Assembly: GCA_937946835.1 (NCBI GenBank)
Contig: CALFAV010000004.1
Coordinates: forward strand, 8,787 to 72,786
Source: an uncultured Verrucomicrobiae bacterium
GTDB lineage: Bacteria; Verrucomicrobiota; Verrucomicrobiia; Limisphaerales; J093
Reading direction: 5' to 3'
DNA: 64,000 nucleotides
Part shown: positions 129 through 15,612 of the stretch, piece after piece
Position numbering within the stretch: the first letter of the stretch is position 1
Layout: every line of letters starts with the position of its first letter
Translations under genes and position numbers: made by a program
Notes under the pieces: model-generated
Told to the model about the DNA's origin: nothing
Databases searched by the model: none
Seen by the model: only the letters and a program-made list of their open reading frames with translations

Positions 129-1928
129 TTATGAGTTTGCGGACGCGGTTTCCGCCATCGGCTCTGGCTCAACCCACCGGCCGTGTTCCTTGATGAGGTC
201 CACCAGCCGGTCCACGGCCTCGGCCTCGGGGATGTTGAATTTCACCGGCGTCTTGCCCACGTAGAGGTTCACCTTGCCCGGCGCCCCGCCCACGTAGCCG
301 AAATGCGCATCGGCCATTTCGCCCGGGCCGTTCACGATGCAGCCCATGATGGCGATCTTCACGCCCTTGAGGTGTCGGGTGCGGGCCTTGATGCGTGCGG
401 TCACGGTCTGGAGGTTGAACAACGTGCGACCGCAACTGGGACAGGCGACGTAGTCGGTTTTGAACGACCGCACGCCGGCAGCCTGGAGGATGTTGTAGGC
501 CAGCCGCAGCGAGCGCTCCGGATCGTGCTCCCCGCGGACCAGCACGGCGTCCCCGATGCCATCGGCCAGCAGCGCGCCGAGGACCACCGAGGCCTGGAGC
601 AACGCCAGGTTTGGCGGCAGCGGTGGGTCGTCCAATGGCAGGCTGTCCTTGAGCAAAATCGGGTTGCGGCGGCCCAGTTGGTTCAGTCGCGCGGCCAGCA
701 GGCGAAACGCGGCGATCGCTGGCAGGTCCAGGCCGTCTTTGACCGTGACCAGGTGGGTGTCGCGTGGAATGGCGGCGGGGGAAATTTCCTCGCGCGGGTC
801 CAGTTCGAGCACGGGGAGGTCCTCGTACACGGCCTCGGGCCGGACGTCGTCCCGGGGGCGCAGCCGGGGCGCCACGCGCTCGAAGGTGGCGCGGGTCACC
901 ACCACCCGCACGGGTTCCTCAGCGCCGCAGGGCACGCCCGGGGCCAGCTCGATGATCGGCGTGGGTCGGCGTTGGAAGTTAAAGGGGTCGAACGGCAGGG
1001 GCAGCTCGGGCACGGGCTGGTGGTTGGCCAGCCGGGGCGTCAGGCGAATCAGGTCTTCGCACACCGGGATTTCATGCGGCGAGTCCTCGGTTAGGCTCAC
1101 TCGGATGGTGTCGCCCAGGCCCTCCACGAGCAGCGAGCCGATGCCGATGGCGGATTTGATGCGGCCGTCCTCGCCCTCGCCCGCCTCGGTTACGCCCAGG
1201 TGCAGCGGGTAATTCCAGTCCGGCCCCAGTTCGGCGAGCCGGGCGGCCAGCAGGCGGTAGCTCTGGATCATCACCTTCGGGTTGCTGGCCTTCATCGAGA
1301 ACACGAGGTGATGGAAGTCGTGCTTGCGGCAGATGCGGGCAAACTCGAGGGCGCTTTCCACCATGCCCTGCGGGGTGTCGCCGGAGCGGTTGAGGATGCG
1401 GTCGGAGAGCGAGCCGTGGTTGGTGCCGATGCGCAGGGCGCGGCCCAGCTCCTTGCAACGGAGGACCAGCGGGGTGAATCGCTCCTCCAGCCGCGCCAAC
1501 TCGGCGGCGTACTGGGCGTCGGTGTACTCCTTGACGACAAATTTCTTGCTGTCGGCGTAATTGCCGGGGTTGACACGCACCTTCTCCACCCACCGGGCGG
1601 CTTCGAGGGCGGCTTCGGGTTTGAAGTGGATGTCGGCCACGAGCGGCACGGGGCAACCGCGCCGGCGCAGTTCGCGCGCGATGTGCTCGAGGTTGGCGGC
1701 GTCCTTCACGGTGGGCGCGGTGATGCGCACCAGTTGGCAGCCGGCCTCGACCAGGGCCAGCGTCTCGCGCACACAGGCGGCGGTGTCCATCGTGTCGCAG
1801 GTGATCATGGACTGCTTCACCACCGGATGGTCGCCGCCGATGATCACCCCGCCGCGGGCCGGATCGCCCACCGTCACGGGACGGGTGGCGCGGCGGATGT
1901 GGCGGTACACGGAGGCGCAGTACTTCAT
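129..1928 (-). CDS. ispG: 4-hydroxy-3-methylbut-2-en-1-yl diphosphate synthase (IspG/GcpE), long form with inserted domain
   Basis: 599-aa ORF. The N-terminal block 'VTVGDPARGGVIIGGDHPVVKQSMITCDTMD...VRITAPT...VADIHF' and the C-terminal Fe-S block 'DYVACPSCGRTLFNL...IAIMGCIVNGPGEMADAHFGYVGG' are diagnostic of GcpE. TAA stop. The start overlaps the rseP stop (ATGA). Confidence 0.93.
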   Translation of the reverse strand: MKYCASVYRHIRRATRPVTVGDPARGGVIIGGDHPVVKQSMITCDTMDTAACVRETLALVEAGCQLVRITAPTVKDAANLEHIARELRRRGCPVPLVADIHFKPEAALEAARWVEKVRVNPGNYADSKKFVVKEYTDAQYAAELARLEERFTPLVLRCKELGRALRIGTNHGSLSDRILNRSGDTPQGMVESALEFARICRKHDFHHLVFSMKASNPKVMIQSYRLLAARLAELGPDWNYPLHLGVTEAGEGEDGRIKSAIGIGSLLVEGLGDTIRVSLTEDSPHEIPVCEDLIRLTPRLANHQPVPELPLPFDPFNFQRRPTPIIELAPGVPCGAEEPVRVVVTRATFERVAPRLRPRDDVRPEAVYEDLPVLELDPREEISPAAIPRDTHLVTVKDGLDLPAIAAFRLLAARLNQLGRRNPILLKDSLPLDDPPLPPNLALLQASVVLGALLADGIGDAVLVRGEHDPERSLRLAYNILQAAGVRSFKTDYVACPSCGRTLFNLQTVTARIKARTRHLKGVKIAIMGCIVNGPGEMADAHFGYVGGAPGKVNLYVGKTPVKFNIPEAEAVDRLVDLIKEHGRWVEPEPMAETASANS

Positions 1929-3337
1929 GGGCGGACGGGCGCGGGCGGCGCTCCGGGCGTGGGCGCCGGTTCGACCTGTTGAATCTCGGCCTGCCGGTCA
2001 AACAGGAGCCGGAACAGGGGGAGGCGCTTGAGGTCAAAGAAGGTCACGTAGAGGATGAAGCTGAGCAGGAGCATGGCGAAGCCGGTGGTGGTGTACTCGA
2101 CCACGCGCACGCTCAGCGGTCGGCCGCGCACCCATTCCACCAGGGCCATGAGGATGTGCCCGCCGTCGAGCACCGGGATGGGCAGCAGATTCAGAATGGC
2201 GAGGTTCAGGTTGAGGAGCACCAGGAAATTCAGGGCCAGGCGGTAGTCAATCGAGACCTGCGCCGCCAGAAAGGCAAAGATGCCCACCGGCCCGGACAGG
2301 TCCTTGGCGCCCACGCCCGTCTCCTTCGAGTGCAAGAGCGCCCCCAGGGTACCGACGGTGCGCTGCCACACCTCGCGGAAGTTTTCCCAGGGGGTGGGCC
2401 CGGGCCGGCGCACCTGGTACACCACCCGCTCGCTGCCCCCGATTTCCGCACCGATGAACCCCTTGCCCGTGGCGGGATTGATCCGGGGCGTGATGGTCAG
2501 GGTGACCTCGCGCTCGCCCCGCTGGATGACCAGTTCGGTCGCCTCGCCGGGACGCTGCTGGATCAACTTGATGAACTGCTCCCGCCCGGCGATCGGCACG
2601 CCGGCAAACGACCGCACCACGTCTCCCGGCTGCAAACCCACCGCCTCCGCCGCGCTGCCCGGCAGCACGCCGCGCACCACCGGATGCTCCTGCGGCTCCA
2701 GCGCCAGCATCTTCCAGCCCAGCTCGCGGTTGACCTTCGCGGTCAACGTCACCGTCTCCCGGCGCCCCTCCCGCTCGAAGGTCACGGCAAACACGTTGGT
2801 GCGGGACAACACCACCCGCTCGGTGACGTCCTCCCAGGAGCTGACCGGCTGGCCATTGACGGCCACGATGCGGTCGCCCGCCCGGAGGCCCGCGGCGTAT
2901 TCGGGGGAGTCTTCCGGCACGTGCCCGATGATGGCCGGGTTCACCGGCACCGGCAGGCCGGTGAAAAAAACCGCCACCGCCACGAGAAACGCAAACCCCA
3001 CATTCATCAGGGGACCCGCCACCGACACCAGGATTTTGGACAAGGGCGGCGCGGGCGGGGGCGGCGGCGCCCCGGATTTCCCGCCTTCCAGCGTCTCCGA
3101 GGTGATCATTTGCGGCAGGCGCACGAAGCCCCCGGCCGGAATCCAGCGCACCGAGTACTCGATGCCGTCCCGCACGCGGCTCCAGATGCGTGGGCCGAAC
3201 CCGATGGCGAAGGCCTCCACCTTCATCCCGCGCCAGCGGGCCACCAGGAAATGCCCCAGCTCGTGGACAAACACCGAGGCGCCAAACATCAACACCACGG
3301 CCGCGGCCACGTAAATCCAGAATAGAAAATCAACCAT
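1925..3337 (-). CDS. rseP: RIP site-2 zinc metalloprotease, M50 family (RseP-like)
   Basis: 470-aa ORF with 'HELGHFLVARW' (HExxH) in the first TM helix, central PDZ-like segments and the C-terminal 'LNLLPIPVLDGGHIL' motif. Sits directly upstream of ispG in the same operon. Confidence 0.9.
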   Translation of the reverse strand: MVDFLFWIYVAAAVVLMFGASVFVHELGHFLVARWRGMKVEAFAIGFGPRIWSRVRDGIEYSVRWIPAGGFVRLPQMITSETLEGGKSGAPPPPPAPPLSKILVSVAGPLMNVGFAFLVAVAVFFTGLPVPVNPAIIGHVPEDSPEYAAGLRAGDRIVAVNGQPVSSWEDVTERVVLSRTNVFAVTFEREGRRETVTLTAKVNRELGWKMLALEPQEHPVVRGVLPGSAAEAVGLQPGDVVRSFAGVPIAGREQFIKLIQQRPGEATELVIQRGEREVTLTITPRINPATGKGFIGAEIGGSERVVYQVRRPGPTPWENFREVWQRTVGTLGALLHSKETGVGAKDLSGPVGIFAFLAAQVSIDYRLALNFLVLLNLNLAILNLLPIPVLDGGHILMALVEWVRGRPLSVRVVEYTTTGFAMLLLSFILYVTFFDLKRLPLFRLLFDRQAEIQQVEPAPTPGAPPAPVRP

Positions 3338-3607
3338 GCTTGCAGCGGTGCCCCGGTGGCACAGCGGCCCAGTGTAGAACCCGCGTCGTTCCCCTGCAAC
3401 TGCGAGCCCTCCCCCGACCGCACCGCCCCGGCCGCCGGCCGTTGCTCGGTTTCTTGCACCTGGCTCGTGATTCCGGCTTTGCGGGCGCAGCGGCCGTCAT
3501 CCTGGCGGCCGCAGTGGGCGGCTCCCGACCGCCCGGGACAAGCTCACCCGCTACCAGGTCACCCGCCCGCCTGCCGAAAATTGAGACGCGCCCCCTGCCG
3601 TCGGCGG

Positions 3608-3690
3608 TTGCAATTCGTCCTGGACTTAGTTCAGTAGAAATGGTAATCGTTTAACAATCAACCAATAGTTGAACTAACAACAACATTGAC
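3608..3690. promoter_or_regulatory. AT-rich island in the rseP / giant-gene divergent intergenic region; probable promoter or operator region
   Basis: The stretch 'ttgcaattcgtcctggacttagttcagtagaaatggtaatcgtttaacaatcaaccaatagttgaactaacaacaacattgac' is strikingly AT-rich for this genome. It contains TTGCAA/TTAACA/TTGACC hexamers and the near-palindrome AGTTgAACT, and ends about 20 nt before ATG 3713. No specific -35/-10 assignment is secure. Confidence 0.35.
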
Positions 3691-3712
3691 CCTGCGCGGG
3701 CACACACGCGCC

Positions 3713-3865
3713 ATGCAACCGACCCTTCTTCGGTAAGTTTTTCCCGTGCTTCTCCTGGCCGGAACGCTCCGCGCCGCTGAGTTCACCTGGTCCGGCGCGG
3801 TTTCCTCGGATTGGTCCAACCCGGCCAACTGGACCCCGACCGGCGTGCCCGGACCGGCCGACTAG
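3713..3865 (+). other. Signal-peptide-encoding leader in frame with the giant ORF, interrupted by TAA (3734-3736) and ended by TAG (3863-3865)
   Basis: Same frame as 3893..15550. It reads M-Q-P-T-L-L-R-*-V-F-P-V-L-L-L-A-G-T-L-R-A-A-E-F-T-W-S-G-A-V-S-S-D-W-S-N-P-A-N-W-T-P-T-G-V-P-G-P-A-D-*, then V-I-Y-P-A-G-K-P-A-L-S-L-N-G. This is a Sec-type signal peptide followed by a Trp-rich opening motif. GTG 3746 is an alternative start for a 39-aa mini-ORF. Confidence 0.6.
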
Positions 3866-3892
3866 GTCATCTATCCCGCGGGAAAACCCGCT

Positions 3893-6800
3893 TTGAGCCT
3901 CAACGGAGCCCGTACCGTGGCCGGCTTCGCCCAGGCCGGCGGCGCGCTGGTCGGCCCCGGTCAGTTGACCGTGACCGGCAGTGGCACGTGGTCCGGCGGA
4001 ACCATTCGAGACAACTGCGTTTTGCTCATCCCGGCCGGGGCTTCCGGGACCATCACCGGTTCCGCCAGCCGGGCATTGGTGGGCGGCACGGTACGCGTGG
4101 CCGGCCTGGCCCGCTGGGAGGGCACGGCCAACATCGGGGCCGGGGAAGGTGCCCTGGTCGAAATTGTGCCCGGTGGGATTTTTGAACTTCGGAATGACGA
4201 GGGCTTTTACCACTCCTACGGCGGGGCCACGCCGAGCCTTCGCAATGCGGGTACGGTGCGCAAGCTGGAATCCACCGGCACCTCCAACTTGGGCGTCCCG
4301 TTTCACAACGAAGGCGAGCTCGTGGTGCTCAGCGGCACCTTGAGGCTGACTCGGGGCGGTTCCAGCTCCGGTCGCTTCCTGGCCACCGCGCCCGGGGTGC
4401 TCGAATTCGGAGACGGCACGCACGAGCTGTCGCCTGCCACCACCTGGCAGGGGAACGGCATCTTTCGGGTGACCAGCGGTACGGTCAACCTGGCGGGTAC
4501 CTGCGAATTGACAGGAAAAGCCGTCATCAGCGGGGGGACGCTTAACTTCACCGGGGCAAGCGCCAGTATCCTCAACTTGGAACTGGTTTCCGGCGAGCTC
4601 ACCGGCAACGGGCGGTTGGTGTTTGGGGACACGCTGAGCTGGAGCGGGGGGACGCTGCGCGGGACCGGGGAGGTGGTGATCCCGGCGGGGGGGCGGCTGG
4701 TGCTGAGCGGCAGCGCGGGGCGGACGCTGCGGGGCGGGCGCACGGTGCGGGTGGCGGGGGAGGCGGTCTGGGAGGGCAGCGGCAGTCTCAGCAGCGGGGA
4801 GGGGGCGCGGGTGGTGATTGAGCCGGGCGGGGTGTGGGTGCTGGGGACGGACGCGGACTTTTACTTCAACTGGGGTGGGGAGCGGACGGTGGTGCAGAAT
4901 GCGGGGCTGGTGCGCAAGAGCGGCGGCGGGGGGGTGAGCACCTTTGCCGGGGTGGCCTTGGCGAACGCCGGCACCCTGGCCGTGGACACGGGCATGTGCT
5001 CGTTCACGGGGCCTTTCACGCAGGAAACAGGCACGTTCCGGGTGGGGTTGCGTGACCCGACGGACCTCGGGCAAATCCGCATTCAGGGCACGGCGCCCTT
5101 GAACGGCACTTTCGTGGCGATTTGGCGCGAAGGATTCGTTCCGACCGTGGGGGCGACCTTCCCGGTCGTGCTTTATGGTGGTCGCAGCGGTGGGTTTACC
5201 AACTGGCAACTGCCGGCGTTGCCCGGCGGCCTGGCGTGGCGGGCGTCGTATCTGGCGGACCGCCTGCAACTCGAGGTCACGACCGCTCCGACCCCCACCG
5301 CCCAAATCCGGGGCACGGTCCGCAGCACCACGGGCAATTCCATCGCCGGGGCGCGCGTGTTTGCCTTTCGGCTTGATCCCCACCAGGTCCTGTCCCTGGA
5401 CACGGTGACCGACGCCTCCGGCGCCTATCGGCTGGGCGTGACCGATGGCACCTGGCAGGTGGGAGTGACGGGGTTGCCGGCGCTGGGTTTTCGCGAGGTG
5501 CCCAATCAAACCGTCGTCGTCAGCGGCGCCGACCAGGAAGTCCACTTCGTGACCGCCCCCCTGGCCGGTCAAAATTTCCTGGTCACGGTGCGTGTCCAAC
5601 CCGAGGCGGGCGGCTCGGTCAGCGGTGGGGGAACGTACCCGGAGGGCACGGAGGTGACCGTGAGGGCCACGCCCAGCCGCAGTCCGGTGCCGTATGTTTT
5701 CCTGAACTGGACGGAGGGCGGGGTGGAGGTTGGCCGGGAGCCGGCCTACACCTTCATGCTGACCCGCCACCGGGACCTGGTGGCCCACTTCGCCGTGGAA
5801 ACCTTCACGGTCACGGCCGCCAACGATCCGCCTGCGGGCGGCCGGGTCAGCGGCGCGGGGATTTTTGCCTACGGGGCGACCTGCACGTTGCGCGCCACGC
5901 CCAACTTCGGCTACCGCTTCGACCGTTGGACCGAGGAGGGCGCGGTCCTTAGCACCAACGCGGAGCTGAGCCTGGTGGTCCAGACCAACCGCACCCTGAT
6001 TGCGCACTACGCCGAGGCGCATCTGTGGCACACGGTCGCCACGGCCACGCAGCCGCCGAACCTGGCGCCGGTCAGCGGTGCCGACACGTACACCAACGGC
6101 CAAACCGCCACCTTCAACGCCCCGGCCGGCCTGACCGACGCGGTGAACCGCTACACCTTCAGCCACTACCTCTGGAACGGGGCTTGGCACACGAGCGCGA
6201 ACCCGTTCACCAAAGTCTTCGCCACCACCGACCCGACCAACGTGACGGTCACGGCGGTGTACCGGGTCCAAAGCCTGCAGCCGCGCGTGGTGGCCGTGGA
6301 GCCCGATCCCCCGGAGCCCGTCCCCGCAACCACCAACTTCACGCTCCGCATCCGCTTTGATCGTCCCATGCGTGGGGTGCCGGAGCCGGCCGTGGTGCTG
6401 AGCAACCGGGTCAACGGTCAGGCGCTGGCCTTCCCTCCGGGGGGCACGTGGGGCACCGGGTCAGTCTCGAACGACGTTTACCGAACCCCGCCGCTGGCCG
6501 TCACGCCCGCCCTCGATGGGACCAACGAGGTCTGGATTGCCGGAGCGCGCGACGTGTACGACTACGCGTTGCTGCCAACCAACGCGCTGCCTCTGGTGGT
6601 GGACGCCACCCCGCCGCAGATCAGCGCCCTGACCGCCGCGGCCGGTCCCCACCTGGCGGTGATCACCTGGGTGACCGACGAACCGGCCACCTCGCAGGTC
6701 GAGTATGGGGAAACCGGCGCTTACGGCCGGCTGACCCCCCTCAGCACTTCCCGCGTGACCGCCCACCGTGTCGAACTGAGCGGGTTGATGCCGGATCGGC

Positions 6801-9800
6801 GGTACCATTTTCGGGCGCGGAGCCGGGACCGGGCGGGCAATGAAACCGTTTCGGCCGAGGCGACCCTGACCACCGGCCCGGCGCCCGATCTTTCGATTGC
6901 TCGGCTTACCGTTGAACCGCCGGGCGACCTGACCAGCGGCATCCCGGTGGTGATTCGCTGGACGGTGACCAACTCGGGCCCGGGCGCGGTCACCGCCTCC
7001 TGGTACGACCGCGTGGTGGTGAGCAACGTCCCCCTGGGCGCGGTGCTTGGGGACACCCTGGTCTATCACGACCACGCCGCGCTGGGGCCCCTGCCCGGCG
7101 GCACGGCTCGTGAGCGCGAGCTGGCCTGGGTCCTGCCCGACGGGCCCTCGGGCGCCGGGTCGTTGGAATTTGCCGTGACAAGCGACGCGCTCGGCGCCGT
7201 GTTCGAGTGGAACCCCGCCGGCTCCGCCGAAACAAACAACCGCGCTGCACTAAGCCGCGTCAGCACCCTCGCGGCCTACCCGGATTTGGGGGTGACCGAC
7301 CTGGCGGTCAGCCCGGTCGCCCCGCGCTCAGGGCAGGAACTGACCCTGACCTGGCAAACGCGGAACTCGGGGACCGCACCGGTGATCGCGTCCTTTGTCG
7401 AGCGGCTCACCGTGCGCAACCTCGACACCGGCGAAACATTCTTTGCGGACCTGGTCCGCTACGACGCCGGCGCTGACGGCCCCATCCCCCCGGGCGGCAG
7501 CCGTGCCCGGCAGTTGTCCGTGCGCCTGCCCAATGGCCCGCGCGGCGTGGGCCGCTTGCAAATCGAGGTGCTCACCGACAGCCAGGACCACGTTTTCGAG
7601 TACAACGCCGCCGGCACCGGCCAGCTCAACAACACCGCCACGCGGGAAGTAACCGCCACGCTGGCCGCCTACCCCGATCTGGTCGTTACGGCCGTGACCG
7701 GTCCGACCGAGGGTCTGCCCGGACAGGAAATCCCGGTGGTTTGGTCCGTGGCCAATCTGGGCAACGCCCCGGCGGCAGGCACCTGGACCGACCAGGTCTT
7801 TTTGTCCGGTGACGCCCTCCCCGGCGGCGATCTCCTGCTGGGCAGCTTCGTTTTCACCGGCACCCTGCCGGTCGGGCAGACGCTGACCCGCACCCAGGCG
7901 GTGAGCCTGCCCGTGTTTGGCGCCGGGCCGCACCGGCTGCGGGTGCGCGCGGACGCGGGAAATGCCCTGTACGAACTGGACAAGACCAACAACCGGGGCG
8001 TGGCCCCGCTGCCGCTGAACCTGACGCCCAGCCTGGCGTTGCTGGTCTCGCCCGACCGCATTTCCGAAGGCGCGGGCGAAAACGCGGCCACCGGCCGGGT
8101 GCGCCGCAACACCCCTGCGACCGCGCCGCTAACCGTCGCGCTGGCCAGCAGCCACACCAACAAGGTCCGCGTGCCCGAGCAGGTGGTCATCCCGGCCGGC
8201 CGCAGTGAAGCCCCCTTCCCGGTGACCGCCGTGGACGACACCTGGGCCGCCGGCCCGGCGCCGGTCACGCTCACCGCTTCGGCACCCGGCCACGAGACCG
8301 CCACCACGACGCTGAGCGTGCAGGACGACGACCTGCCCCAACTGCTGCTGCGGGTCTCCCGGAGCCGGGTGGCCGAAGGTGAGGGGCCAACTGCCGCACT
8401 GGCCTACCTGACCCGCAACGGGACCACCAACCTCCCGCTGGTCGTCACGCTGTTCAGCGACCGCATCAACCACCTCGCGGCGCCGGCCACGGTCCGGCTC
8501 GAAGCCGGAGAGCGCCACCTGGTGTTCCCACTCGCCGCGGTGGACAACGCGGTCCTCGAGGGCACGGTCACCGTGCGCCTTCAGGCCACGGCGCCGGGTT
8601 ATCCCGCCGCTTCAGTGCGGGTGGAAGTGACCGACAACGACGCGCCCCTGCTGACCCTGGTCCCCAGCGTGACGCTCCTGGTCGAAGGCGGTCCCAGTCC
8701 GGCCGCCACGATCACGGTTACGCGCGACCCGGTGACCGACCGCCCGTTGACGCTGCGCCCGGGTACCGGCGGGCCGAGCGACCTGATTTACCCGCCCCAG
8801 GTCGTGATCGGCGCCCGCGAGGCTTCCGCCACCTTCGGGATTTCGGTGCGCGATGATGACCGCGTGAACGGCGCGCGGGAGATTCCGCTGCGGGTGGCGC
8901 CCCTGGCGGACAACGGCGCCGTGCTGGACGAGTACGCGGCCGAGGTTCGGTTCGAGGTGCTGGACAACGACGGCCCCTCCCTTTCCCTGCGGCTGGCCGG
9001 CGACGTCGTGCGCGAAGGTGACAGCCTCACGGCCACCCTCGCCCGCAACACCGATCCGGCCGCGCCGCTGACCGTAAGCCTGGCCAGCAGCGACCCGGGC
9101 GAGGCGCAGGTACCCGCCCGCGTGGTCATCCCCGCCGGCCGGCTCAGCACCGCGTTCCCGGTGACCGGCGTGCGAGACGGGGTGAGCGACGGCACGCAAC
9201 CGGTGTTGTTGACCGCCAGCGCGCCGGGTTTCAACCCCGCCACCGCCGCTCTGAATGTGACCGACCTGGACGTGCCGGATTTGCGCGTGGTCGAAATCCG
9301 CGCGCCGACCTCGGCGGTGGGCGGATCCGTTGTTCAAATTTCCTGGGTCATCACCAACGCCGGTCTGGCGGCCGCCTCCGGCGCGTGGTCCGACCGCGTG
9401 TACCTTTCCCGCGATGCCTACGCCGGCGGCGACACACCGGTGGGCGGCGTCACTTTCAACGGGTCCCTCGCGGCGGGCGGGACCTACGTCCGCTCCGCGT
9501 TCGTGACCCTGCCGGAAACGCCGCGGGAGCACTGGTTCGTCGTGGTCACGGACGCCGACAACGCCCTGGTCGAGGGCGCCGACCACAACAACACCGCGGT
9601 TTCGGCCGTGCCCGTGCGGGTTGAGCCGGCCTGGCGCGCCGTTGCCGAAACGGAGGTGGAGCTGGCCCCTTGCGGCACCCCCGTGCCCATTCGCGGCCGG
9701 GCGTGGTACGTGGCCGATCAATCGCCCGCGGCGGGGCGGCCGGTCGAGGTGCGCATTCGCACGGGCGCCGTGCGGCGCGTGCTGCGGGCGGTGGCCGACG

Positions 9801-12800
9801 CGCGCGGCGAATTTGCCTGCACTTTTGAACCCCTGCCGACCGAGGCCGGCCACTACACGCTGGGCGCCGAGCATCCCGAGGTGGCCGAGGACCCGGCGCA
9901 GGACCGGTTCGCGCTGGGGGGCTTCGCGGCAGTGCCGGAGCGCCTGAGCCTGCGCCTGGCCCCTTTCACCCCGGTGAGCGGCCGGCTCGAATTGCGCAAC
10001 CGCGGCGCCGTGCCGTTGAGCGGTCTGCGCGCCGGCCTGTCCAACGCCCCGCCCGGTCTGGACCTGCAACTGAGCTTCCCCGACGCCCTGCCCGGCTCCG
10101 GGACCGCGGACCTGGCCTACACCCTGAACACCACGATGACCAACCGCGCCCGGTTCGACGCGGTGCTGCATCTGACCACGGCCGAAGGCGCCCGGACGGC
10201 GGTGCCGCTGGAAATCACGGTCGCCCCCCTGCAGCCCGAGTTGGTTTCCGATCCGCCCTTCCTGACCCGGGGCATGGTACGGGGCACGCGCGCCCTGCTC
10301 ACCTTCGACGTGGCGAACGTCGGCGGCGCCCCCAGCGGCGAACTGGAAGTGCGCCTGCCAGAGGCGGCGTGGCTTGGCCTGGCCAGTGAAGCCCGGATTC
10401 CCTCGCTTGCGCCCGGCGAGAAAACCACGGTCACACTGGCGCTGAATCCCTCGGCGGACCTGCCCCTGACCCGTTACGACGGTCAGGTGGGGCTGTTCGG
10501 AGAGCGCACGTGGATCATCGTGCCGTTCCAGTTTCGGGCCGTTTCGGAGGCCGTGGGCGACCTGGTGGTCACGGTCAGTGACGAGTACACCTACTTCGTG
10601 GCCGGCGCGCCGCGGGTGACCAATGCCGCGGTGCGGCTGCGTGACCCGCTCACGCTGGAATTGGTGGCCGAAAGCCCCACCGACGCCGACGGCCGGGCGC
10701 GGTTCGCCAACCTCCCCGAAGGCCCCTACACGTTGGAAGCGGCGGCCGAACGCCACGCCACGCATCGCGGCAACTTCCTGCTCCTGCCGGGCATCGAGAA
10801 CACCGTGGACGTGTTCCTCGCCCGGCAGACGGTCATCTACCGGTGGACCGTGGTGCCGCTGGAGATCGAGGACACCTACCGCATCGTGCTCGAGCCGGTC
10901 TTCGAGACCGAGGTGCCCGTCCCGGTGGTGGTGATGGAAAACCCGCACAAGGTGGAGCTGGTGGTGCCGGGGCAGACCACGCAGTTCGACATCACCCTGG
11001 TCAACCCCGGGTTGATTGCGGCGCAAAATGTCCGGCTCATTGTCCCGAACGACCCCGATTACGAAATCACTCCGCTGGTGAGGGAGGTCCCGGTGCTGCC
11101 GGCCAAAAGTCGGGTCACCATCCCCACCACCATACGTTTGCGGGAGGGCACCGCCGCGGCCCTGGCCAACGCGCGCTCCCCGGACCCCGCCGCGGCCGTC
11201 GCCCTGGCCGGGGCGCCCGTGCCGGCCGACCCACCGCCGCCGATGTGCAAACTCCAACTGCACGGTTGCCTGCCGGGCCTGCCGCTGGGCTACACCTACG
11301 AGTACGAGTGCAACGGCCCGAGGAAAAACGGCGGCGGCGGCGACCTGCGGCCCGTGTGCGTGGACCAGGACAAGTTTGACTGCGTGAAGGACCTGATGAC
11401 CTGCCTCCTTGGGCGTGAACCCTGCGACCCGTGTGATCTGGCCATGGCCCTGATTGCCTGCGCCGGGGCGGAGATGAGCCCCTGCCTGAAGGCGACGCTG
11501 CTGGCCGCCTGCCACATCCTGAGCAAGGGCGGCGCGGGCATCATCCCCAGCTTGGGCGGCTTCCTGGAGTGTCTCTGTGATTTGTTGTCCGGCCTGGGTG
11601 GCTCCGACTCCTCGGACCCGGGGCCCGGAGGTGACGGGGGACCATTGCCCCCCGGGCTGGCTCTGACCTCCAAAAACGTGGACATCCGGGGACCGGGATG
11701 GGGGCTGCCCCCCTGCACCAACCAGGGCGGATTGCAGGGAGTGGCGTTGGCCGGTCACGCACCGGTCCGGCACGCGCCCCCCGGGGCCGGTGTTTGCGCC
11801 CGCGTGCGGCTGCGCATCGAGCAGGAGGCTGTGCTCACCCGCACCGCTTTTCTGGGCACGCTCGAACTGGACAATGGCGGTCCGCACCCGCTCGAGGGCA
11901 TTCGGGTCACGCTCGAATTCCGCGACCTCGAGGGCAACCCGGCCGGAGAGCGCTTCGTGATACGCGGCCCCGAGGTCACCGGGCTGAGTGACGTGAACGG
12001 CACCGGCACGCTGGCGCCGTTCCGGATTGGCACGGCCCGTTACACCTTCATTCCCACGCGTGAGGCCGCGCCCACCGCCCCGGCCGTGTACCACATCGGC
12101 GGCATGCTGCGCTACGTCGAGGCCGGCCAGGAGATGTTGGTGCCGCTGTACTCGGCCGGCATCTCCGTGTTCCCCGAGCCGCGCCTGCACCTGCTGTACT
12201 TCCAGCAGCGGGACGTGTTCAGCGACGACCCGTTCACCGACGAAATCGAGCCGGCCGAACCGTTCGCCCTGGGGCTGATCGCCCGCAACCTGGGCGCCGG
12301 ACCGGCCCGCAACTTCCGCATCACCTCCGCCCAACCGCGCATCATCGAAAACGAGAAGGGCCTGTTGGTGGACTTCAAGATTATCGGCACCCAGGTGGGC
12401 GACCAGCCGGTCGCACCCTCCCTGACGGCGCGGCTGGGGAACATCCCGCCCGGCGGCGCCCAAACCGCCGTGTGGTGGATGACCAGCACCCTCCAGGGCA
12501 AGTTTGTCGAGTACCACGCCACCTTCGAGCACGTGGACTCGCTGGGCGTGACCAACCTGTCCCTGATCGAGTCGGTCGAGGTGCATGAACTGATCCGGGC
12601 CGTGCGCGCCGACCGGCCCGGCGACGACGCGCTGCCGGACTTTCTGGTCAACGACGAGCCCGATCCGGACAGTTTGCCGGACACCCTTTACTTGAGCGAC
12701 GGCACGCGGGCGGTGGTCAACCCGGCCACCAACGTGCGCACCGACCGCGCCCCCACGCCGGACCGGCCGGTGGTGCAACTGAGCGCGGCGATGCCTTCCG

Positions 12801-15550
12801 GTTGGGGCTACCTCCGCGCCCCCGACCCCGGACCGGGCTACCGCCTGGTGCGCGTGGTGCGCGCTGACGGCCGTGAGCTGCGCGTCGGTGAACACGCCTG
12901 GACCACCGACCGCACCTTCCCGTCGGCGCAGGCCGGCGCGCGGCGCGAGCACCACCTGCACCTTTTGGATCACGACAGCCCGGGCGCGTACACCCTGCAT
13001 TACCGGGTGAACGATCCCGAGCCGCCGCGCATTTTGGCCATCATCGGTCTGGCGCCCGGCGCGCCATCCGCGCCGGTGGACGAGTTGGACGTGGTCTTCT
13101 CCGAGCCGATTGACCCGGCCACGTTCGACTTCGAGGACCTGGAGCTCTCGCTTGACGGGGGCCCGAACCGCATCACGGCCGCCGTGGGCATTCGGCACCT
13201 TTCCGGCAGCACCTATCGGGTGGGCAACCTGGCCGGGCTGACCGATCTGCCCGGCAATTACGAATTCACCGTGCGGGGCGAGGACCTCCGCGATTTCGGG
13301 GGCAACCCGGCGGCCAATTCGCTCTCCGTCCGCTGGGCCTTCGAACGCGGGGGACCGGTGGCGGTCCGGGTCGGCCCGGTCCGGCCCGACCCCCGCAACA
13401 CCCCGGTGAGCACCGTGGACGTGGAATTCTCCCGCCCGATCAATCCGCTCACGTTCGAGGCAAGTGACCTGGGGCTGACACGCAACGACGGGCCGAATCT
13501 GGTTGGCCCGGCCATCACCGTGGCGGCGCTTTCGCCGACCACCTTCCGTGTCGGCGGACTGGATACGCTGACGCGCGCCGAAGGGCGTTACCGGTTGACC
13601 GTGCACGGTGCCGGGGTCCGCGACACCGAGGGGCGGGCCGGGACCGGTCGGCTGAGCGCGGAATGGACCATGCTCACCACCGGCCCGCGCCTGGTGGCCC
13701 TCGAGGCGGTGGCCACGACCCCGCGCAACCTCGTGGTCCCGTCGCTGGACGTGACCTTTGCCGCGCCCATAGACCCGGCCTCGTTCGACCATCGCGATCT
13801 GACCCTGAACCGCGACGGCGGCCCCAACCTGATCACTCCCGAGGTGCGCCTCGAGCGCCTCCGCGACACGGTCTATCGCATCCGCGAGTTCAACTGGGTC
13901 GTGGGCCAGGAGGGCACCTACACGCTGACCGTGAACGCCGCCAACATCCTGGACCCCGCCGGGAATCCGGGCCGCGGCACATTGTCCACCTCCTGGGTCA
14001 TGGACACGACCCCGCCGGCCGCGCCGCGGCAACTGACCATCACCCCGGACCTGGGAATTTCGGCCGGGGACGCACTGACCTCGACCAACGTTCTGACCCT
14101 GGCCGGCACGCTGAGCGAACCCAACCTCACGGTCCGCCTGCGGGACGAGAGTGCCGGCGCCGACCTGGGCGAGGCGGTGGTCACCGGCACCAACTTCCAC
14201 CGCGTGCTGCGTTTGACCGCCCCGGGGTTGCACGCGCTGCAGGTGCGCGCCGTGGACGCCGCGGGCAACGTCTCACCCACCGCCGTCCTGCCGGTCTTCC
14301 TCGACCTGGTGCCACCCACGGCCGCCTTTGAACCGGTCGCCCCCGACCCGCGCACGACGCCGGTGTCGGCGGTGGTGTTGCGCTTCAGTGAACCCATCGT
14401 GGCGGACCGGCTGACCCCGGACGACTTCACGCTCGTCCGCGACGGAAGCTCGAACCTGGTGACCGCCGCACTGACCATCACCCACGCCTTCGGCGATGCG
14501 TTTGCCATTGGCGGCCTGGCCCCGCTCACCGCCGTGCCGGGCGAGTACCGGCTGCGGCTCTTGCCCGGGAGCGTCGAGGACCGGGCGGGCAATGCAAACC
14601 TCGAGACGGTCGAGCTCGTCTGGACCCTGCGTGCGCCCAACACCCCGCCGCAACTGACGCGTCCGGCCAATGTTCACCTCGGCCCCGAGATGTGGCTGGT
14701 GTTCACCAACACCGCCACCGACGCGGACGTGCCGCCCAATCGCCTGACCTTTCGACTCGAACCGGGCGCGCCGGCCGGCGCCACCGTGGACCCCGACACC
14801 GGCGTTTTCCGCTGGAAACCCACCCGGGCCCAGGCGCCGGGCGTTTATCCCCTGACCCTCACGGTCACGGATGACGGCACCCCGCCGTTGAGCGACTCGG
14901 CCTCGTTCACCGTGACGGTCACGGATTTTCTTGAACTGCGCTGGGGGCGGGTGGCGGTCCTGGCCGGCAGTACGGTCGCCGTGCCACTGCATGTTTTTAC
15001 CAGCGGGTTGCTCACGAACCTGGAGTTTGAACTGCGACTGAGCACGGAGCGGTTGACCCACCTGACCCTGGAGCCGCTGCGCCCGGAAATCGCCCTCGCC
15101 ACGGTCCGGGAGCTGAGCCCGCGGCGTTACGCCATGAACCTGCGGACCGGCCCCGGCCAAAGCCTCCGGGGCGCGCATCTGGCCGCTTTGTTGCACGTCA
15201 CGGCGCGCACCGGCGCACCCTCGGAATTCGTCGCGCTGGAGTCCGAGCGGGTCGCTTTCCAAATCATGGAATCGGCGTTGCCGGGTGTGGCGTTTGGGGT
15301 CGCCGGACGGGTGGCCGTGCTGGCGGAGCAGCCGTTGCTCGACGCGGCGGTGGCGGCGGACGGGTCTTACTTGCTTTCCGTGTTCGGGGCTTCGGACATC
15401 ACCTGCCAGCTCCAGGTAGCCTCGCGTTTGGGACCGGACGCCAACTGGACCGACTGGCAGCGGGTGACCCTGTCCGCCCTGGAACAGCCCGTACCGCTGC
15501 CAGCGCTGCCCTTCAGCCCGGTGTTTTTCCGCGCCGTGGTCATCCCCTAG
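3893..15550 (+). CDS. Giant (3,885 aa) multi-domain surface/adhesin-like protein with beta-helix-like repeats, CarboxypepD_reg-like, B-repeat, FN3-like, CARDB, Calx-beta-like, Cys-rich island, Ig-like (SbsA/Big-like), cadherin-like, cohesin-like and C-terminal beta-sandwich modules
   Basis: Single uninterrupted 11,658-nt ORF with a TAG stop. Domain idioms read by eye include 'IRGTVRSTTGNSIAGARVFAF' (CarboxypepD_reg-like), 'PDLxVxxLxVxP...GqxxxvxWxvxNxG' (CARDB), units ending in D-D-D/D-N-D (Calx-beta-like), 'VDxLDVxFSEPIDPATFDxxDLxLxxDGGPN' (Ig-like) and 'DADVPPNRLTFRLEPGAP...VDPDTGVFRWKP' (cadherin/He_PIG-like). The first in-frame start after the upstream TAG is TTG 3893, and no signal peptide follows it. 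Confidence 0.9.
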   Translation: MSLNGARTVAGFAQAGGALVGPGQLTVTGSGTWSGGTIRDNCVLLIPAGASGTITGSASRALVGGTVRVAGLARWEGTANIGAGEGALVEIVPGGIFELRNDEGFYHSYGGATPSLRNAGTVRKLESTGTSNLGVPFHNEGELVVLSGTLRLTRGGSSSGRFLATAPGVLEFGDGTHELSPATTWQGNGIFRVTSGTVNLAGTCELTGKAVISGGTLNFTGASASILNLELVSGELTGNGRLVFGDTLSWSGGTLRGTGEVVIPAGGRLVLSGSAGRTLRGGRTVRVAGEAVWEGSGSLSSGEGARVVIEPGGVWVLGTDADFYFNWGGERTVVQNAGLVRKSGGGGVSTFAGVALANAGTLAVDTGMCSFTGPFTQETGTFRVGLRDPTDLGQIRIQGTAPLNGTFVAIWREGFVPTVGATFPVVLYGGRSGGFTNWQLPALPGGLAWRASYLADRLQLEVTTAPTPTAQIRGTVRSTTGNSIAGARVFAFRLDPHQVLSLDTVTDASGAYRLGVTDGTWQVGVTGLPALGFREVPNQTVVVSGADQEVHFVTAPLAGQNFLVTVRVQPEAGGSVSGGGTYPEGTEVTVRATPSRSPVPYVFLNWTEGGVEVGREPAYTFMLTRHRDLVAHFAVETFTVTAANDPPAGGRVSGAGIFAYGATCTLRATPNFGYRFDRWTEEGAVLSTNAELSLVVQTNRTLIAHYAEAHLWHTVATATQPPNLAPVSGADTYTNGQTATFNAPAGLTDAVNRYTFSHYLWNGAWHTSANPFTKVFATTDPTNVTVTAVYRVQSLQPRVVAVEPDPPEPVPATTNFTLRIRFDRPMRGVPEPAVVLSNRVNGQALAFPPGGTWGTGSVSNDVYRTPPLAVTPALDGTNEVWIAGARDVYDYALLPTNALPLVVDATPPQISALTAAAGPHLAVITWVTDEPATSQVEYGETGAYGRLTPLSTSRVTAHRVELSGLMPDRRYHFRARSRDRAGNETVSAEATLTTGPAPDLSIARLTVEPPGDLTSGIPVVIRWTVTNSGPGAVTASWYDRVVVSNVPLGAVLGDTLVYHDHAALGPLPGGTARERELAWVLPDGPSGAGSLEFAVTSDALGAVFEWNPAGSAETNNRAALSRVSTLAAYPDLGVTDLAVSPVAPRSGQELTLTWQTRNSGTAPVIASFVERLTVRNLDTGETFFADLVRYDAGADGPIPPGGSRARQLSVRLPNGPRGVGRLQIEVLTDSQDHVFEYNAAGTGQLNNTATREVTATLAAYPDLVVTAVTGPTEGLPGQEIPVVWSVANLGNAPAAGTWTDQVFLSGDALPGGDLLLGSFVFTGTLPVGQTLTRTQAVSLPVFGAGPHRLRVRADAGNALYELDKTNNRGVAPLPLNLTPSLALLVSPDRISEGAGENAATGRVRRNTPATAPLTVALASSHTNKVRVPEQVVIPAGRSEAPFPVTAVDDTWAAGPAPVTLTASAPGHETATTTLSVQDDDLPQLLLRVSRSRVAEGEGPTAALAYLTRNGTTNLPLVVTLFSDRINHLAAPATVRLEAGERHLVFPLAAVDNAVLEGTVTVRLQATAPGYPAASVRVEVTDNDAPLLTLVPSVTLLVEGGPSPAATITVTRDPVTDRPLTLRPGTGGPSDLIYPPQVVIGAREASATFGISVRDDDRVNGAREIPLRVAPLADNGAVLDEYAAEVRFEVLDNDGPSLSLRLAGDVVREGDSLTATLARNTDPAAPLTVSLASSDPGEAQVPARVVIPAGRLSTAFPVTGVRDGVSDGTQPVLLTASAPGFNPATAALNVTDLDVPDLRVVEIRAPTSAVGGSVVQISWVITNAGLAAASGAWSDRVYLSRDAYAGGDTPVGGVTFNGSLAAGGTYVRSAFVTLPETPREHWFVVVTDADNALVEGADHNNTAVSAVPVRVEPAWRAVAETEVELAPCGTPVPIRGRAWYVADQSPAAGRPVEVRIRTGAVRRVLRAVADARGEFACTFEPLPTEAGHYTLGAEHPEVAEDPAQDRFALGGFAAVPERLSLRLAPFTPVSGRLELRNRGAVPLSGLRAGLSNAPPGLDLQLSFPDALPGSGTADLAYTLNTTMTNRARFDAVLHLTTAEGARTAVPLEITVAPLQPELVSDPPFLTRGMVRGTRALLTFDVANVGGAPSGELEVRLPEAAWLGLASEARIPSLAPGEKTTVTLALNPSADLPLTRYDGQVGLFGERTWIIVPFQFRAVSEAVGDLVVTVSDEYTYFVAGAPRVTNAAVRLRDPLTLELVAESPTDADGRARFANLPEGPYTLEAAAERHATHRGNFLLLPGIENTVDVFLARQTVIYRWTVVPLEIEDTYRIVLEPVFETEVPVPVVVMENPHKVELVVPGQTTQFDITLVNPGLIAAQNVRLIVPNDPDYEITPLVREVPVLPAKSRVTIPTTIRLREGTAAALANARSPDPAAAVALAGAPVPADPPPPMCKLQLHGCLPGLPLGYTYEYECNGPRKNGGGGDLRPVCVDQDKFDCVKDLMTCLLGREPCDPCDLAMALIACAGAEMSPCLKATLLAACHILSKGGAGIIPSLGGFLECLCDLLSGLGGSDSSDPGPGGDGGPLPPGLALTSKNVDIRGPGWGLPPCTNQGGLQGVALAGHAPVRHAPPGAGVCARVRLRIEQEAVLTRTAFLGTLELDNGGPHPLEGIRVTLEFRDLEGNPAGERFVIRGPEVTGLSDVNGTGTLAPFRIGTARYTFIPTREAAPTAPAVYHIGGMLRYVEAGQEMLVPLYSAGISVFPEPRLHLLYFQQRDVFSDDPFTDEIEPAEPFALGLIARNLGAGPARNFRITSAQPRIIENEKGLLVDFKIIGTQVGDQPVAPSLTARLGNIPPGGAQTAVWWMTSTLQGKFVEYHATFEHVDSLGVTNLSLIESVEVHELIRAVRADRPGDDALPDFLVNDEPDPDSLPDTLYLSDGTRAVVNPATNVRTDRAPTPDRPVVQLSAAMPSGWGYLRAPDPGPGYRLVRVVRADGRELRVGEHAWTTDRTFPSAQAGARREHHLHLLDHDSPGAYTLHYRVNDPEPPRILAIIGLAPGAPSAPVDELDVVFSEPIDPATFDFEDLELSLDGGPNRITAAVGIRHLSGSTYRVGNLAGLTDLPGNYEFTVRGEDLRDFGGNPAANSLSVRWAFERGGPVAVRVGPVRPDPRNTPVSTVDVEFSRPINPLTFEASDLGLTRNDGPNLVGPAITVAALSPTTFRVGGLDTLTRAEGRYRLTVHGAGVRDTEGRAGTGRLSAEWTMLTTGPRLVALEAVATTPRNLVVPSLDVTFAAPIDPASFDHRDLTLNRDGGPNLITPEVRLERLRDTVYRIREFNWVVGQEGTYTLTVNAANILDPAGNPGRGTLSTSWVMDTTPPAAPRQLTITPDLGISAGDALTSTNVLTLAGTLSEPNLTVRLRDESAGADLGEAVVTGTNFHRVLRLTAPGLHALQVRAVDAAGNVSPTAVLPVFLDLVPPTAAFEPVAPDPRTTPVSAVVLRFSEPIVADRLTPDDFTLVRDGSSNLVTAALTITHAFGDAFAIGGLAPLTAVPGEYRLRLLPGSVEDRAGNANLETVELVWTLRAPNTPPQLTRPANVHLGPEMWLVFTNTATDADVPPNRLTFRLEPGAPAGATVDPDTGVFRWKPTRAQAPGVYPLTLTVTDDGTPPLSDSASFTVTVTDFLELRWGRVAVLAGSTVAVPLHVFTSGLLTNLEFELRLSTERLTHLTLEPLRPEIALATVRELSPRRYAMNLRTGPGQSLRGAHLAALLHVTARTGAPSEFVALESERVAFQIMESALPGVAFGVAGRVAVLAEQPLLDAAVAADGSYLLSVFGASDITCQLQVASRLGPDANWTDWQRVTLSALEQPVPLPALPFSPVFFRAVVIP
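3986..5011 (+). repeat. Two copies of a ~124-aa beta-helix-like unit in the N-terminal region of the giant protein (3986-4357 and 4637-5011)
   Basis: Hand alignment: 'TWSGGTIRDN..IPAG...GSA.RALVGGTVRVAGLARWEG...GEGALVEIVPGG...D.GFY..YGG.....NAGTVRK' versus 'SWSGGTLRGTGEVVIPAG...GSAGRTLRGGRTVRVAGEAVWEG...GEGARVVIEPGG...DADFYFNWGG....NAGLVRK'. Confidence 0.75.
5575..6265 (+). repeat. Three tandem ~75-aa 'B-repeat'-like units within the giant protein
   Basis: Units 'VTVRVQPEAGGSVSGGGTYPEGTEVTVRATP...YVFLNWTEGG', 'FTVTAANDPPAGGRVSGAGIFAYGATCTLRATPNFGYRFDRWTEEG' and 'HTVATATQPPNLAPVSGADTYTNGQTATFNAP...FSHYLWNG'. Confidence 0.6.
6884..8020 (+). repeat. Three tandem CARDB-like modules; a fourth lies at about 9271-9600
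   Basis: Each unit opens with '(Y)PDL(S/G/V)(I/V)..L.V.P' and then 'G..(I/L).(V/L).W.V.N.G.(G/A)'. Confidence 0.65.
8031..9270 (+). repeat. Four tandem Calx-beta-like modules (~100 aa each)
   Basis: Units begin 'L(L/V)VSPDRISEG', 'LLLRVSRSRVAEGEG', 'LTLVPSVTLLVEGG' and 'LSLRLAGDVVREGDS'. Each contains '..V.IPAG(R)....F.V..V(D/R)D' and ends in 'V(Q/T/L)D(D/N/L)D'. Confidence 0.65.
13018..14640 (+). repeat. Array of five ~105-aa Ig-like modules (four SbsA/Big-like and one different Ig-like unit)
   Basis: Recurrent 'P...V..(L/V)DV.F(S/A).PI(D/N)P.(T/S)F...DL.L.(R/L)(D/N)(D/G)GPN(L/R)(I/V)' followed by 'Y(R)(V/L)..L..LT...G.Y.(F/L)TV'. Confidence 0.65.
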
Positions 15551-15612
15551 TCGTGCGCCGGGCGCTTCGTTTCCCCCGTGACCTTCCGACCCCTTCCGAC
15601 GCGGGCGGAACC

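Follow-up and report, generated by a model that had tools for sequence, protein, structure and literature searches.

A probable giant adhesin-like surface protein gene with a conserved cassette modelled by no domain library, in an uncultured Verrucomicrobiae bacterium

Introduction

What kind of protein is encoded by a single 11.7-kb open reading frame (ORF) in the genome of an uncultured Verrucomicrobiae bacterium of the order Limisphaerales (Verrucomicrobiota), and is the gene still intact? The ORF occupies positions 3893..15550 on the + strand of a stretch of 64,000 nucleotides (nt) from contig CALFAV010000004.1, hereafter the window, and according to the ORF listing it encodes 3885 amino acid residues (aa) between a TTG start and a TAG stop. 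It probably specifies a giant secreted, adhesin- or matrix-like surface protein that belongs to a large unnamed family, is carried on a ~12.2-kb insertion and was recently inactivated or switched off. Unless stated otherwise, positions are those of the window and features lie on the + strand.

According to Kohn et al. (2016, PMC5177795, citing Reva and Tummler 2008), the giant genes of bacteria of the Planctomycetes-Verrucomicrobia-Chlamydiae (PVC) group code in most cases for surface proteins and are found where gene content is unique. The gene described here resembles this class in its size above 10 kb, its arrays of Ig-like, CARDB and cadherin-like modules and its location in strain- or species-specific DNA. 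The two papers, however, characterize the class by its size and by generic domains; they describe neither the cassette nor the lone cysteine nor the C-terminal domain reported below, and these are likewise absent from Pfam and NCBIfam. Searches of the literature retrieved nothing on the cassette or on the C-terminal domain.

Coding status and accessory location

Because open frames are cheap at the 69% GC of the window, it is homology and not frame length that proves the giant ORF to be coding; the antisense of the giant-gene stretch also has an open frame of 1873 codons. The metagenomic protein P0153 is collinear with the ORF product and 58% identical to it across residues 314-3885, and orthologues in two other genera (G039 and G017) are collinear at 45% identity over residues ~983-3680. 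The GC content of the ORF is 0.87 at third codon positions vs 0.54 at second positions. Judged by these alignments, the giant ORF is coding and not a chance open frame. The earlier note had described one 11.7-kb ORF with a mosaic of modules, some of them repeated, and this description holds: the ORF is exact, many modules are supported by Pfam, searched with the full-length protein and with ten overlapping segments, and the repeats are evident in self-comparison. The latter pairs unit 1-153 with 217-372 and reveals three B-repeats (553-770), CARDB copies (975-1375 and 1779-1914), four ~105-aa repeats (1376-1794) and four Big_5-like copies (3045-3580).

The gene is accessory, since rseP adjoins lipB in two congeners. 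In the window, rseP and ispG stand upstream of the giant gene, and a lipoyl-ligase-like (lipB) gene, a HhH-GPD glycosylase gene and a fucosidase gene stand downstream. In the congeners G008 (C161) and G002 (C85), rseP is followed by an 86-nt spacer and then by the lipB-like, HhH-GPD and fucosidase genes, with protein identities of 73-91%. DNA homology with the congeners (tblastn, blastn) stops at about 3400-3428 and restarts at 15611. The segment absent between rseP and lipB in both (3430..15610, ~12.2 kb, no strand assigned) comprises the control region and the giant gene; going by the synteny, it is either an insertion here or a deletion in the congeners. No direct repeats of at least 8 nt occur at the junctions, and the segment holds no transposase or integrase. 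Among representatives of the same genus, the closest orthologue of the central block described below has at most 54% identity; the best orthologues are found in other genera at unrelated loci. Neighbours are not conserved: the flanks of orthologues and of the paralogue are unrelated (PSD1/PSCyt2, esterase, oxidoreductase, methylase). The earlier note had called this the only clearly accessory gene. Its accessory nature is borne out by synteny in two congeners, beyond composition, but "only" fails, as an alpha-L-fucosidase gene and a methyltransferase-like gene lie just downstream.

The 5' end and strain-specific lesions

The TTG at 3893 is just the first start codon past an in-frame stop. The ancestral start is probably the ATG at 3713, because the in-frame stretch upstream of the TTG aligns with the intact N-termini of relatives, which consist of a signal peptide followed by the motif AAD[LV]VWTN..G..W....NWSPNQVPG..DNAFI. 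The putative ancestral 5' end (3713..3892), with its signal peptide and Trp-rich opening motif, is cut by two in-frame stops, TAA at 3734-3736 and TAG at 3863-3865. From ATG 3713 the frame reads MQPTLLR*VFPVLLLAGTLRAAEFTWSG...PGPAD*VIY, or, followed further, MQPTLLR*VFPVLLLAGTLRAAEFTWSGAVSSDWSNPANWTPTGVPGPAD*VIYPAGKPA-LSLNG... (asterisks denote stops).

A second assembly, of a 99.8%-identical strain (ENA ERZ6863929), contains a 90-kb contig with the same gene order of rseP, giant gene and lipB. The TAA is common to the window and this strain, the two assemblies coming from different samples. The TAG is private to the window and is replaced by CAG (Gln) in the other strain, which in turn has a private 1-nt deletion at window position 7619, resulting in ORFs of 1301 and 2618 aa. 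The same deletion is present in the Logan assembly of run ERR9287890, whose reads are possibly shared with the ENA assembly. The strains differ at 34 positions; within the giant gene 14 differences are synonymous and 11 nonsynonymous, giving a rough ratio of nonsynonymous to synonymous substitution rates (dN/dS) of about 0.3. The flanking genes ispG, rseP, lipB and HhH show four substitutions and no defects over 4 kb. As different private knockouts lie atop a shared stop in near-identical strains, we take the surface protein to be dispensable and its inactivation to be recent and still under way, or else its loss to be favoured by selection. The substitution pattern suggests that constraint still acted on the gene shortly before its inactivation.

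It was also observed that 5 of the 11 nonsynonymous changes fall in or beside the central block (residues 2738-2874, nt 12104-12512). One of these five turns Tyr2874, a position with a Tyr consensus in the family, into His in the frameshifted strain. The cluster fits relaxed constraint of the block after inactivation, the numbers being small.

It is conceivable, though we consider it doubtful, that the gene is intact and expressed in the population, both stops and the 1-nt deletion being consensus errors of the assemblies or minority alleles. Every sequence considered here is a metagenome assembly, the TAG vs CAG difference is a single C/T change, no further stop interrupts the 3885-codon frame, and the strain differences look constrained, with their ratio of 14 synonymous to 11 nonsynonymous changes. 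However, the TAA recurs across samples and the deletion across the ENA and Logan assemblies, if perhaps with shared reads, and three disruptions in one gene with none in its neighbours do not form the pattern of random error. We therefore retain inactivation, recent and perhaps selected, as the preferred interpretation of the lesions.

Size and architecture of the family

In a library clustered at 50% identity, the central block has 3805 relatives at E<=0.001, of which 1964 reach E<=1e-30. They are annotated at source as "hypothetical", "CARDB domain-containing", "Ig-like domain-containing" and similar. The earlier note had named, as an outcome that would speak against novelty, an architecture already annotated and widespread; the architecture is indeed widespread, but it is not annotated. 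A hidden Markov model (HMM) of the block matches all 241 collected family proteins, and 238 of these contain the block once, at a median relative position of 0.69. The host proteins range from about 600 to 7900 aa. The block is patchily distributed. Carriers comprise 20 of 24 genomes of the same taxonomic family, with up to 8 copies each, whereas the block occurs in 6 of 16 other families of the same order (one genome sampled each) and in 6 of 200 genomes sampled evenly across the phylum. The named taxa include Limisphaerales and Pedosphaera-type bins, Limisphaera sp. VF-2 and Planctomycetota, and further Falsiroseomonas bella, Roseomonas sp. AR75, Calothrix sp. NIES-4105 and an Armatimonadota bin.

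Cassettes were also seen in bins labelled Bifidobacterium, Thiobacillus, Accumulibacter, Binatia or Methylomirabilota (L030, L031, L035, L042, L049, L068 and L091). The blocks of these oddly labelled bins are 50-61% identical to the Verrucomicrobiota block, and the labels may reflect binning or taxonomy errors and not true hosts.

The family plan is a variable N-terminal head, a constant cassette, an Ig-like stalk and a C-terminal module pair; among relatives, it is the head that varies, and the make-up from the cassette onwards stays constant. In precomputed Pfam annotations, the heads of relatives carry M10 or S8 peptidases, C-type or legume lectins, LamG, FG-GAP, RTX or I-set domains, or many Gly-rich repeats. 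The head here is composed of two ~216-aa Gly-rich repeats, CarboxypepD_reg, B-repeats, fn3, CARDB and four ~105-aa repeats. The genome also encodes a paralogue on its contig 37 (G000:C37:56799-61684; L014 4799-9685, - strand), which runs off the contig end and has the same cassette, with a block 53% identical to that of the giant protein. It differs by an extra ~170-aa alpha-helical insert between the Cys island and the block, and its C-terminus bears two He_PIG-like modules and two of the C-terminal FYR domains introduced below.

The conserved cassette and its central block

The cassette opens with a front half (residues 2126-2420, 10268..11152) that comprises a NEW3/CARDB-like sandwich, a second CarboxypepD_reg module, a long beta-hairpin and a CARDB/DUF11-like sandwich. 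It matches PF13620 at residues ~2242-2309 (E 5.8e-10) and, weakly, NPCBM_assoc and CARDB. It is modelled by AlphaFold with a predicted local distance difference test score (pLDDT) of about 85-97 and is kept in the contig 37 paralogue and in 57 related loci.

A Cys-rich island follows (residues 2452-2570, 11246..11602). It consists of a beta-hairpin and four helices with disordered Pro/Gly linkers on either side; in the model (mf4d7b8377d4c) the hairpin spans 2463-2489 and the helices 2492-2566, with pLDDT 52-90, and the linkers fall below 50. The island, whose richness in Cys was seen in the first reading of the sequence, contains 13 Cys, and a 14th (C2608) lies in the following linker. Except for C2504 and C2511 (2%), each Cys column is conserved at 43-97%. 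In most relatives the number of Cys here is even (10, 12 or 14), which fits full disulfide pairing.

The central block (residues 2629-3042, 11777..13018) is formed by three beta-sandwiches, D1 (11777-12178), D2 (12179-12616) and D3 (12617-13018). Its limits, residue 2629 to about 3042, were set by the contig 37 paralogue and by the relatives. No match to the block was obtained in Pfam at E<=1, in NCBIfam at E<=10 or, with a 66-sequence profile, among PDB sequences at E<=10. The AlphaFold2 model built with the family alignment is confident and all-beta (pLDDT 84; predicted template modelling score, pTM, 0.78), with sandwiches at 2638-2759, 2765-2905 and 2915-3039; a second model, of residues 2179-3056, reached pLDDT 82 and pTM 0.68. 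Foldseek searches of the models against PDB and the viral library BFVD returned only generic tandem Ig-like arrays, with template modelling (TM) scores of up to about 0.2. The best matches were solved Ig-like arrays: the pilins CfaB, EbpB and BcpA, integrin alpha legs, the macroglobulin (MG) domains of alpha-2-macroglobulin and hydin-type ciliary ASH domains. With TM scores of about 0.2 or less and identities of 7-12%, this is a likeness of domain class only. Relations to CARDB, DUF11 and NEW3 (NPCBM_assoc) are similarly limited: the protein has four clear CARDB modules and the sandwiches of the cassette give weak CARDB, NEW3 and DUF11 matches, but the three-domain block has none even at E<=1-10. 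The block is thus a new sequence family and not a new fold. The suggestion that the unassigned central blocks might be new domains stands as to a large, unmodelled sequence family and falls as to the fold, which is that of three ordinary beta-sandwiches.

The block signature, GVCA[RK]V..QEAV.TR.AF ... YF.QRDV.SDDPFT ... NF[RK]ITSAQP ... TSTLQG.F ... FEH.D, is strongly conserved, with 43 invariant columns in the 66-sequence alignment. Compared with orthologues, D2 shows 71-79% identity, the N-terminal repeats 27-32% and the C-terminal domain 13-41%; on these alignments D2 is the best-conserved part of the protein, and the head and the C-terminal domain are conserved least. Cys2635 (codon 11795..11797) is a near-invariant lone Cys on the first strand of the block. 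It is invariant in the 66 aligned sequences and in 58 aligned loci and present in 97% of 245 block copies, of which 207 contain exactly one Cys. Gln2644, Arg2650, the SDDPFT loop, TSTLQG and FEHxD are likewise invariant or nearly so. The Cys-bearing first strand has pLDDT 50-64 when the block is modelled alone and about 97 in the larger model, which hints that in the modelled structure it would pack against upstream elements.

Such conservation, far above that of the surrounding Ig-like modules, raises the question of whether the cassette is chemically active. The lone Cys, usually the sole Cys of the block, could form a thioester, another covalent link or a disulfide, or the Asp-Asp-Pro loop could cleave itself, and among the Foldseek matches are the cross-linked Gram-positive pilins BcpA, EbpB and SpaD. 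We regard this as unlikely, however, since searches by sequence and by fold linked the cassette neither to thioester domains, that of alpha-2-macroglobulin included, nor to known self-processing modules, and the pilin matches are generic (TM<=0.22). Thioester domains of Gram-positive bacteria and those of alpha-2-macroglobulin and C3 gave no Pfam or PDB sequence match to the block, and the alpha-2-macroglobulin matches in Foldseek concern the MG-array (TM 0.08). A passive, structurally important cassette remains our preferred view. Two further candidates were tried and rejected. An HExxH metalloprotease motif, IHELIH, occurs in three orthologues, but the sequence here is VHELIR and in others IHEMI[RK]. 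The Thr-Gln ester-bond motif HxDxxDxxQ is absent around FEHVD by an informal comparison by eye.

The C-terminal module pair

The protein ends in two modules shared with other proteins. The first is a conserved module of ~136 aa (residues 3679-3814, 14927..15334) directly before the C-terminal domain. It was detected in 121 of the 241 family proteins, where it ends at a median of 69 aa from the C-terminus. It had been taken for a cohesin-like module, an assignment that profile searches do not support: Cohesin (PF00963) was matched by none of 20 members, and a PDB profile search gave no relevant match.

The second is a ~65-aa C-terminal domain (15335..15547) that ends with ...PVFFRAVVIP. An iterated HMM of this domain, run on six-frame ORFs of the genome, retrieved 50 copies in 49 ORFs. 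In 42 of the 50 copies the domain ends at most 6 aa before the stop codon, with the ending (R)FYR[VAL]xxP, after which it is here called the FYR domain. With a length of ~62-65 aa it occupies the extreme C-terminus of about 40 otherwise unrelated ORFs in the 3.46-Mb genome, on contigs that include C42, C52, C29, C86, C9, C2, C70, C61, C10 and C3. One of the few exceptions to the terminal position is a 668-aa orphan (23696-25702, - strand), in which the FYR domain is near the N-terminus (residues ~58-124 of the frame).

Because this terminal position recurs across dozens of proteins, as it does in the cargo of type 9 secretion systems, the FYR domain is a candidate sorting or anchoring signal. 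The analogy extends to the architecture of the cargo domain (Por_Secre_tail, TIGR04183 / PF18962), a beta-rich C-terminal domain of 60-80 aa found on dozens of unrelated secreted proteins. Unlike in type 9 cargo, the signature is …W…(R)FYR[VAL]xxP, and eight C-terminal domains of this genome had no Pfam or NCBIfam match at E<=10, including to TIGR04183 / PF18962. The terminal location across 49 ORFs shows just that the domain may work like a type 9 signal. We know of no description of a type 9 system from Verrucomicrobiota.

The most far-reaching combination of these observations would make the cassette a covalent joint to the envelope, a subunit or a substrate through its lone Cys, the FYR domain of ~49 proteins the sorting signal of an undescribed pathway in Verrucomicrobiota and allied phyla, and the knockouts the result of selection to shed an exposed protein, e.g. 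a phage receptor or grazer target. We offer this as speculation that is improbable as a whole.

Control region

Upstream of the gene lies an AT-rich patch (3591..3690, no strand assigned), the probable promoter/operator area. Its GC content of 0.44 is the lowest 100-nt value in the window, the next lowest being 0.52, in agreement with its earlier description as the only AT-rich patch. A promoter scan of the control region found no sigma-70 consensus. The intergenic differences between the two strains (3633, 3660 and 3666) were all observed in this 100-nt patch, the other ~275 nt being identical.

The 5' end might also be read as a regulatory device, in which GTG 3746 is the true start, MQPTLLR-stop a 7-codon leader ORF acting as a translational or transcriptional attenuator, and the TAG the sole lesion. 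A terminator-like hairpin (ACCGA-N7-TCGGT, 3718-3734) followed by AAGTTTTTCC overlaps the TAA, the whole element covering 3718-3744. The gene caller chose GTG 3746 in the sister strain (P0244), and the TAA is common to both strains although the gene shows constraint. Nonetheless we find this quite improbable, as the number of hairpins is at chance level (1 found, 0.7 expected), the GTG start leaves a pre-cleavage peptide of 11 residues (MLLLAGTLRAA) vs 17 to 30+ in relatives, and the frame from the ATG, when read through, yields a textbook n-, h- and c-region. The start at ATG 3713 with two later stops remains the preferred interpretation.

Modules outside the conserved cassette

The remaining modules were compared with the hand assignments of the earlier note, most of which are supported by Pfam. 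The N-terminal head begins with two Gly-rich repeat units of ~216 aa (residues 1-432, 3893..5188), recognized by self-similarity and modelled by no library; relatives contain up to 11 tandem copies. Pfam and PDB sequence searches gave no match to the repeat. The units had been called duplicated beta-helix-like units: the duplication is confirmed by self-comparison, but the beta-helix label finds no backing in these searches. The fold may be a beta-solenoid.

The first CarboxypepD_reg module (residues 471-552, 5303..5548; PF13620, E 2.9e-9) and that of the cassette together account for the two such modules that had been proposed. Three InlB-type B-repeats of the Flg_new_2 type (residues 553-790, 5549..6262) had likewise been named correctly, with a match to PF18998 (E 1.1e-22) and three copies in self-comparison. 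In contrast to these, the beta module at residues 795-905 (6275..6607), labelled SbsA-Ig-like, has no Pfam match at E<=1, which leaves that label unsupported. The FN3-like module (residues 906-994, 6608..6874) is supported by PF16656 (Pur_ac_phosph_N, 8.9e-9) and PF00041 (fn3, 2.7e-5), the match spanning residues 913-994.

Three CARDB modules (residues 995-1375, 6875..8017; PF07705 and repeats by self-comparison) and a fourth farther on (residues 1795-1910, 9275..9622; PF07705, E 8.4e-12, match 1795-1902) also agree with the earlier reading. The match to CARDB exceeds the gathering score: the whole protein scores 115 bits against a cut-off of 22.7, and single copies score 26-46 bits. Between them lie four repeats of ~105 aa (residues 1376-1794, 8018..9274), Calx-beta/LapA-like at best, which had been read as four Calx-beta-like modules. 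Self-similarity sustains the four repeats, but their identity as Calx-beta receives weak signals only: the window protein has no match to Calx-beta (PF03160) at E<=1 in Pfam, and among 37 repeats of relatives the LapA domain was matched by 10, weakly, and Calx-beta by 1 (0.022). Searched against PDB, a profile of 37 repeats matched chains of the calcium-binding domain (CBD) of NCX1 at E 0.37-1.5, the best match being the protein-asparaginase 9xg1 (8e-5). Distant kinship is possible. Two unassigned beta modules (residues 1911-2125, 9623..10267) without a Pfam match, 38-58% identical in orthologues, complete the N-terminal part.

Downstream of the central block, five Ig-like modules (residues 3043-3585, 13019..14647) occur in the order Big_5 x3, Big_13, Big_5, as predicted earlier and now identified by PF13205, PF19077 and self-comparison (Big_5 x4 and Big_13 in Pfam). 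They are followed by a module (residues 3586-3678, 14648..14926) rightly described as cadherin/He_PIG-like; it matches PF05345 at 2.6e-10 over residues 3602-3677 and Cadherin more weakly (8.9e-4).

Function and relation to known systems

Among other giant surface proteins, the repeat-rich adhesins exported by type 1 secretion (LapA, SiiE, MpIBP) share the long arrays of beta-sandwich repeats and the Asp-rich junctions. Unlike LapA-type adhesins, the window protein has neither RTX nonapeptide repeats nor a C-terminal type 1 signal; PF00353 (HemolysinCabind) is absent from it and present in some family members. The relatives have an N-terminal Sec signal peptide, and the membrane-proximal part is C-terminal here and not N-terminal. 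As to type 5 autotransporters, no barrel translocator family was found in Pfam and NCBIfam scans of the whole protein.

In the mechanism we propose, a Sec signal peptide such as that of the relatives would carry the protein across the inner membrane, and the C-terminal domain would direct it to the cell surface or hold it there. The constant cassette would serve as a structurally or chemically critical joint, and the variable head, going by its domain types and by the known giant genes of PVC bacteria, would bind a substrate. That the protein would instead be a delivery vehicle for an enzyme or toxin, of the polymorphic-toxin or secreted-hydrolase type, is highly improbable: the heads of some members do contain peptidase (M10 or S8) or RTX modules, but Pfam and NCBIfam revealed no catalytic or toxin domain in this protein, no immunity-like gene is adjacent, and the variable end is N-terminal here, whereas polymorphic toxins vary at the C-terminal tip.

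Several points weigh against the proposal of a recently inactivated surface adhesin. It is solely the domain types that suggest an adhesin role. The C-terminal domain is a candidate signal for which no matching secretion or anchoring machinery was identified, no search aimed at the type 9 genes (PorK/L/M/N, SprA, PorU/V) having been made. As assembled, the gene appears to lack a usable signal peptide, and this copy perhaps exports nothing. A dN/dS of about 0.3, which indicates constraint until recently, sits poorly with the shared TAA as an old knockout. Finally, the stops and the indel could be consensus errors or minority alleles of metagenome assemblies.

Biological significance

Giant surface proteins prevail in the accessory genomes of both Verrucomicrobiota and Planctomycetota, yet they are annotated just as "hypothetical" or "CARDB-containing". 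The gene described here is of this ordinary kind, a giant adhesin-like surface protein gene, with several parts that are modelled by no library. What is mainly gained is proof by synteny that the gene is accessory, a set of strain-specific lesions, a definition of the cassette and the genome-wide C-terminal domain. The ~900-aa constant cassette, present in thousands of protein clusters and absent from domain libraries, offers a handle on this class of giant proteins, and within it the conserved Cys is a handle that can be mutated. An insertion without counterpart in congeners, with different knockouts in near-identical strains, constitutes a natural experiment. The annotation of many environmental genomes would profit from family models of four parts: the block, the N-terminal repeat, the ~136-aa module and the C-terminal domain that follows it. 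The C-terminal domain has the distribution expected of a sorting signal. If it is one, it would point to an unknown route of export or anchoring in a phylum with a poorly known envelope biology; otherwise the gene would be an ordinary member of the giant-adhesin class.

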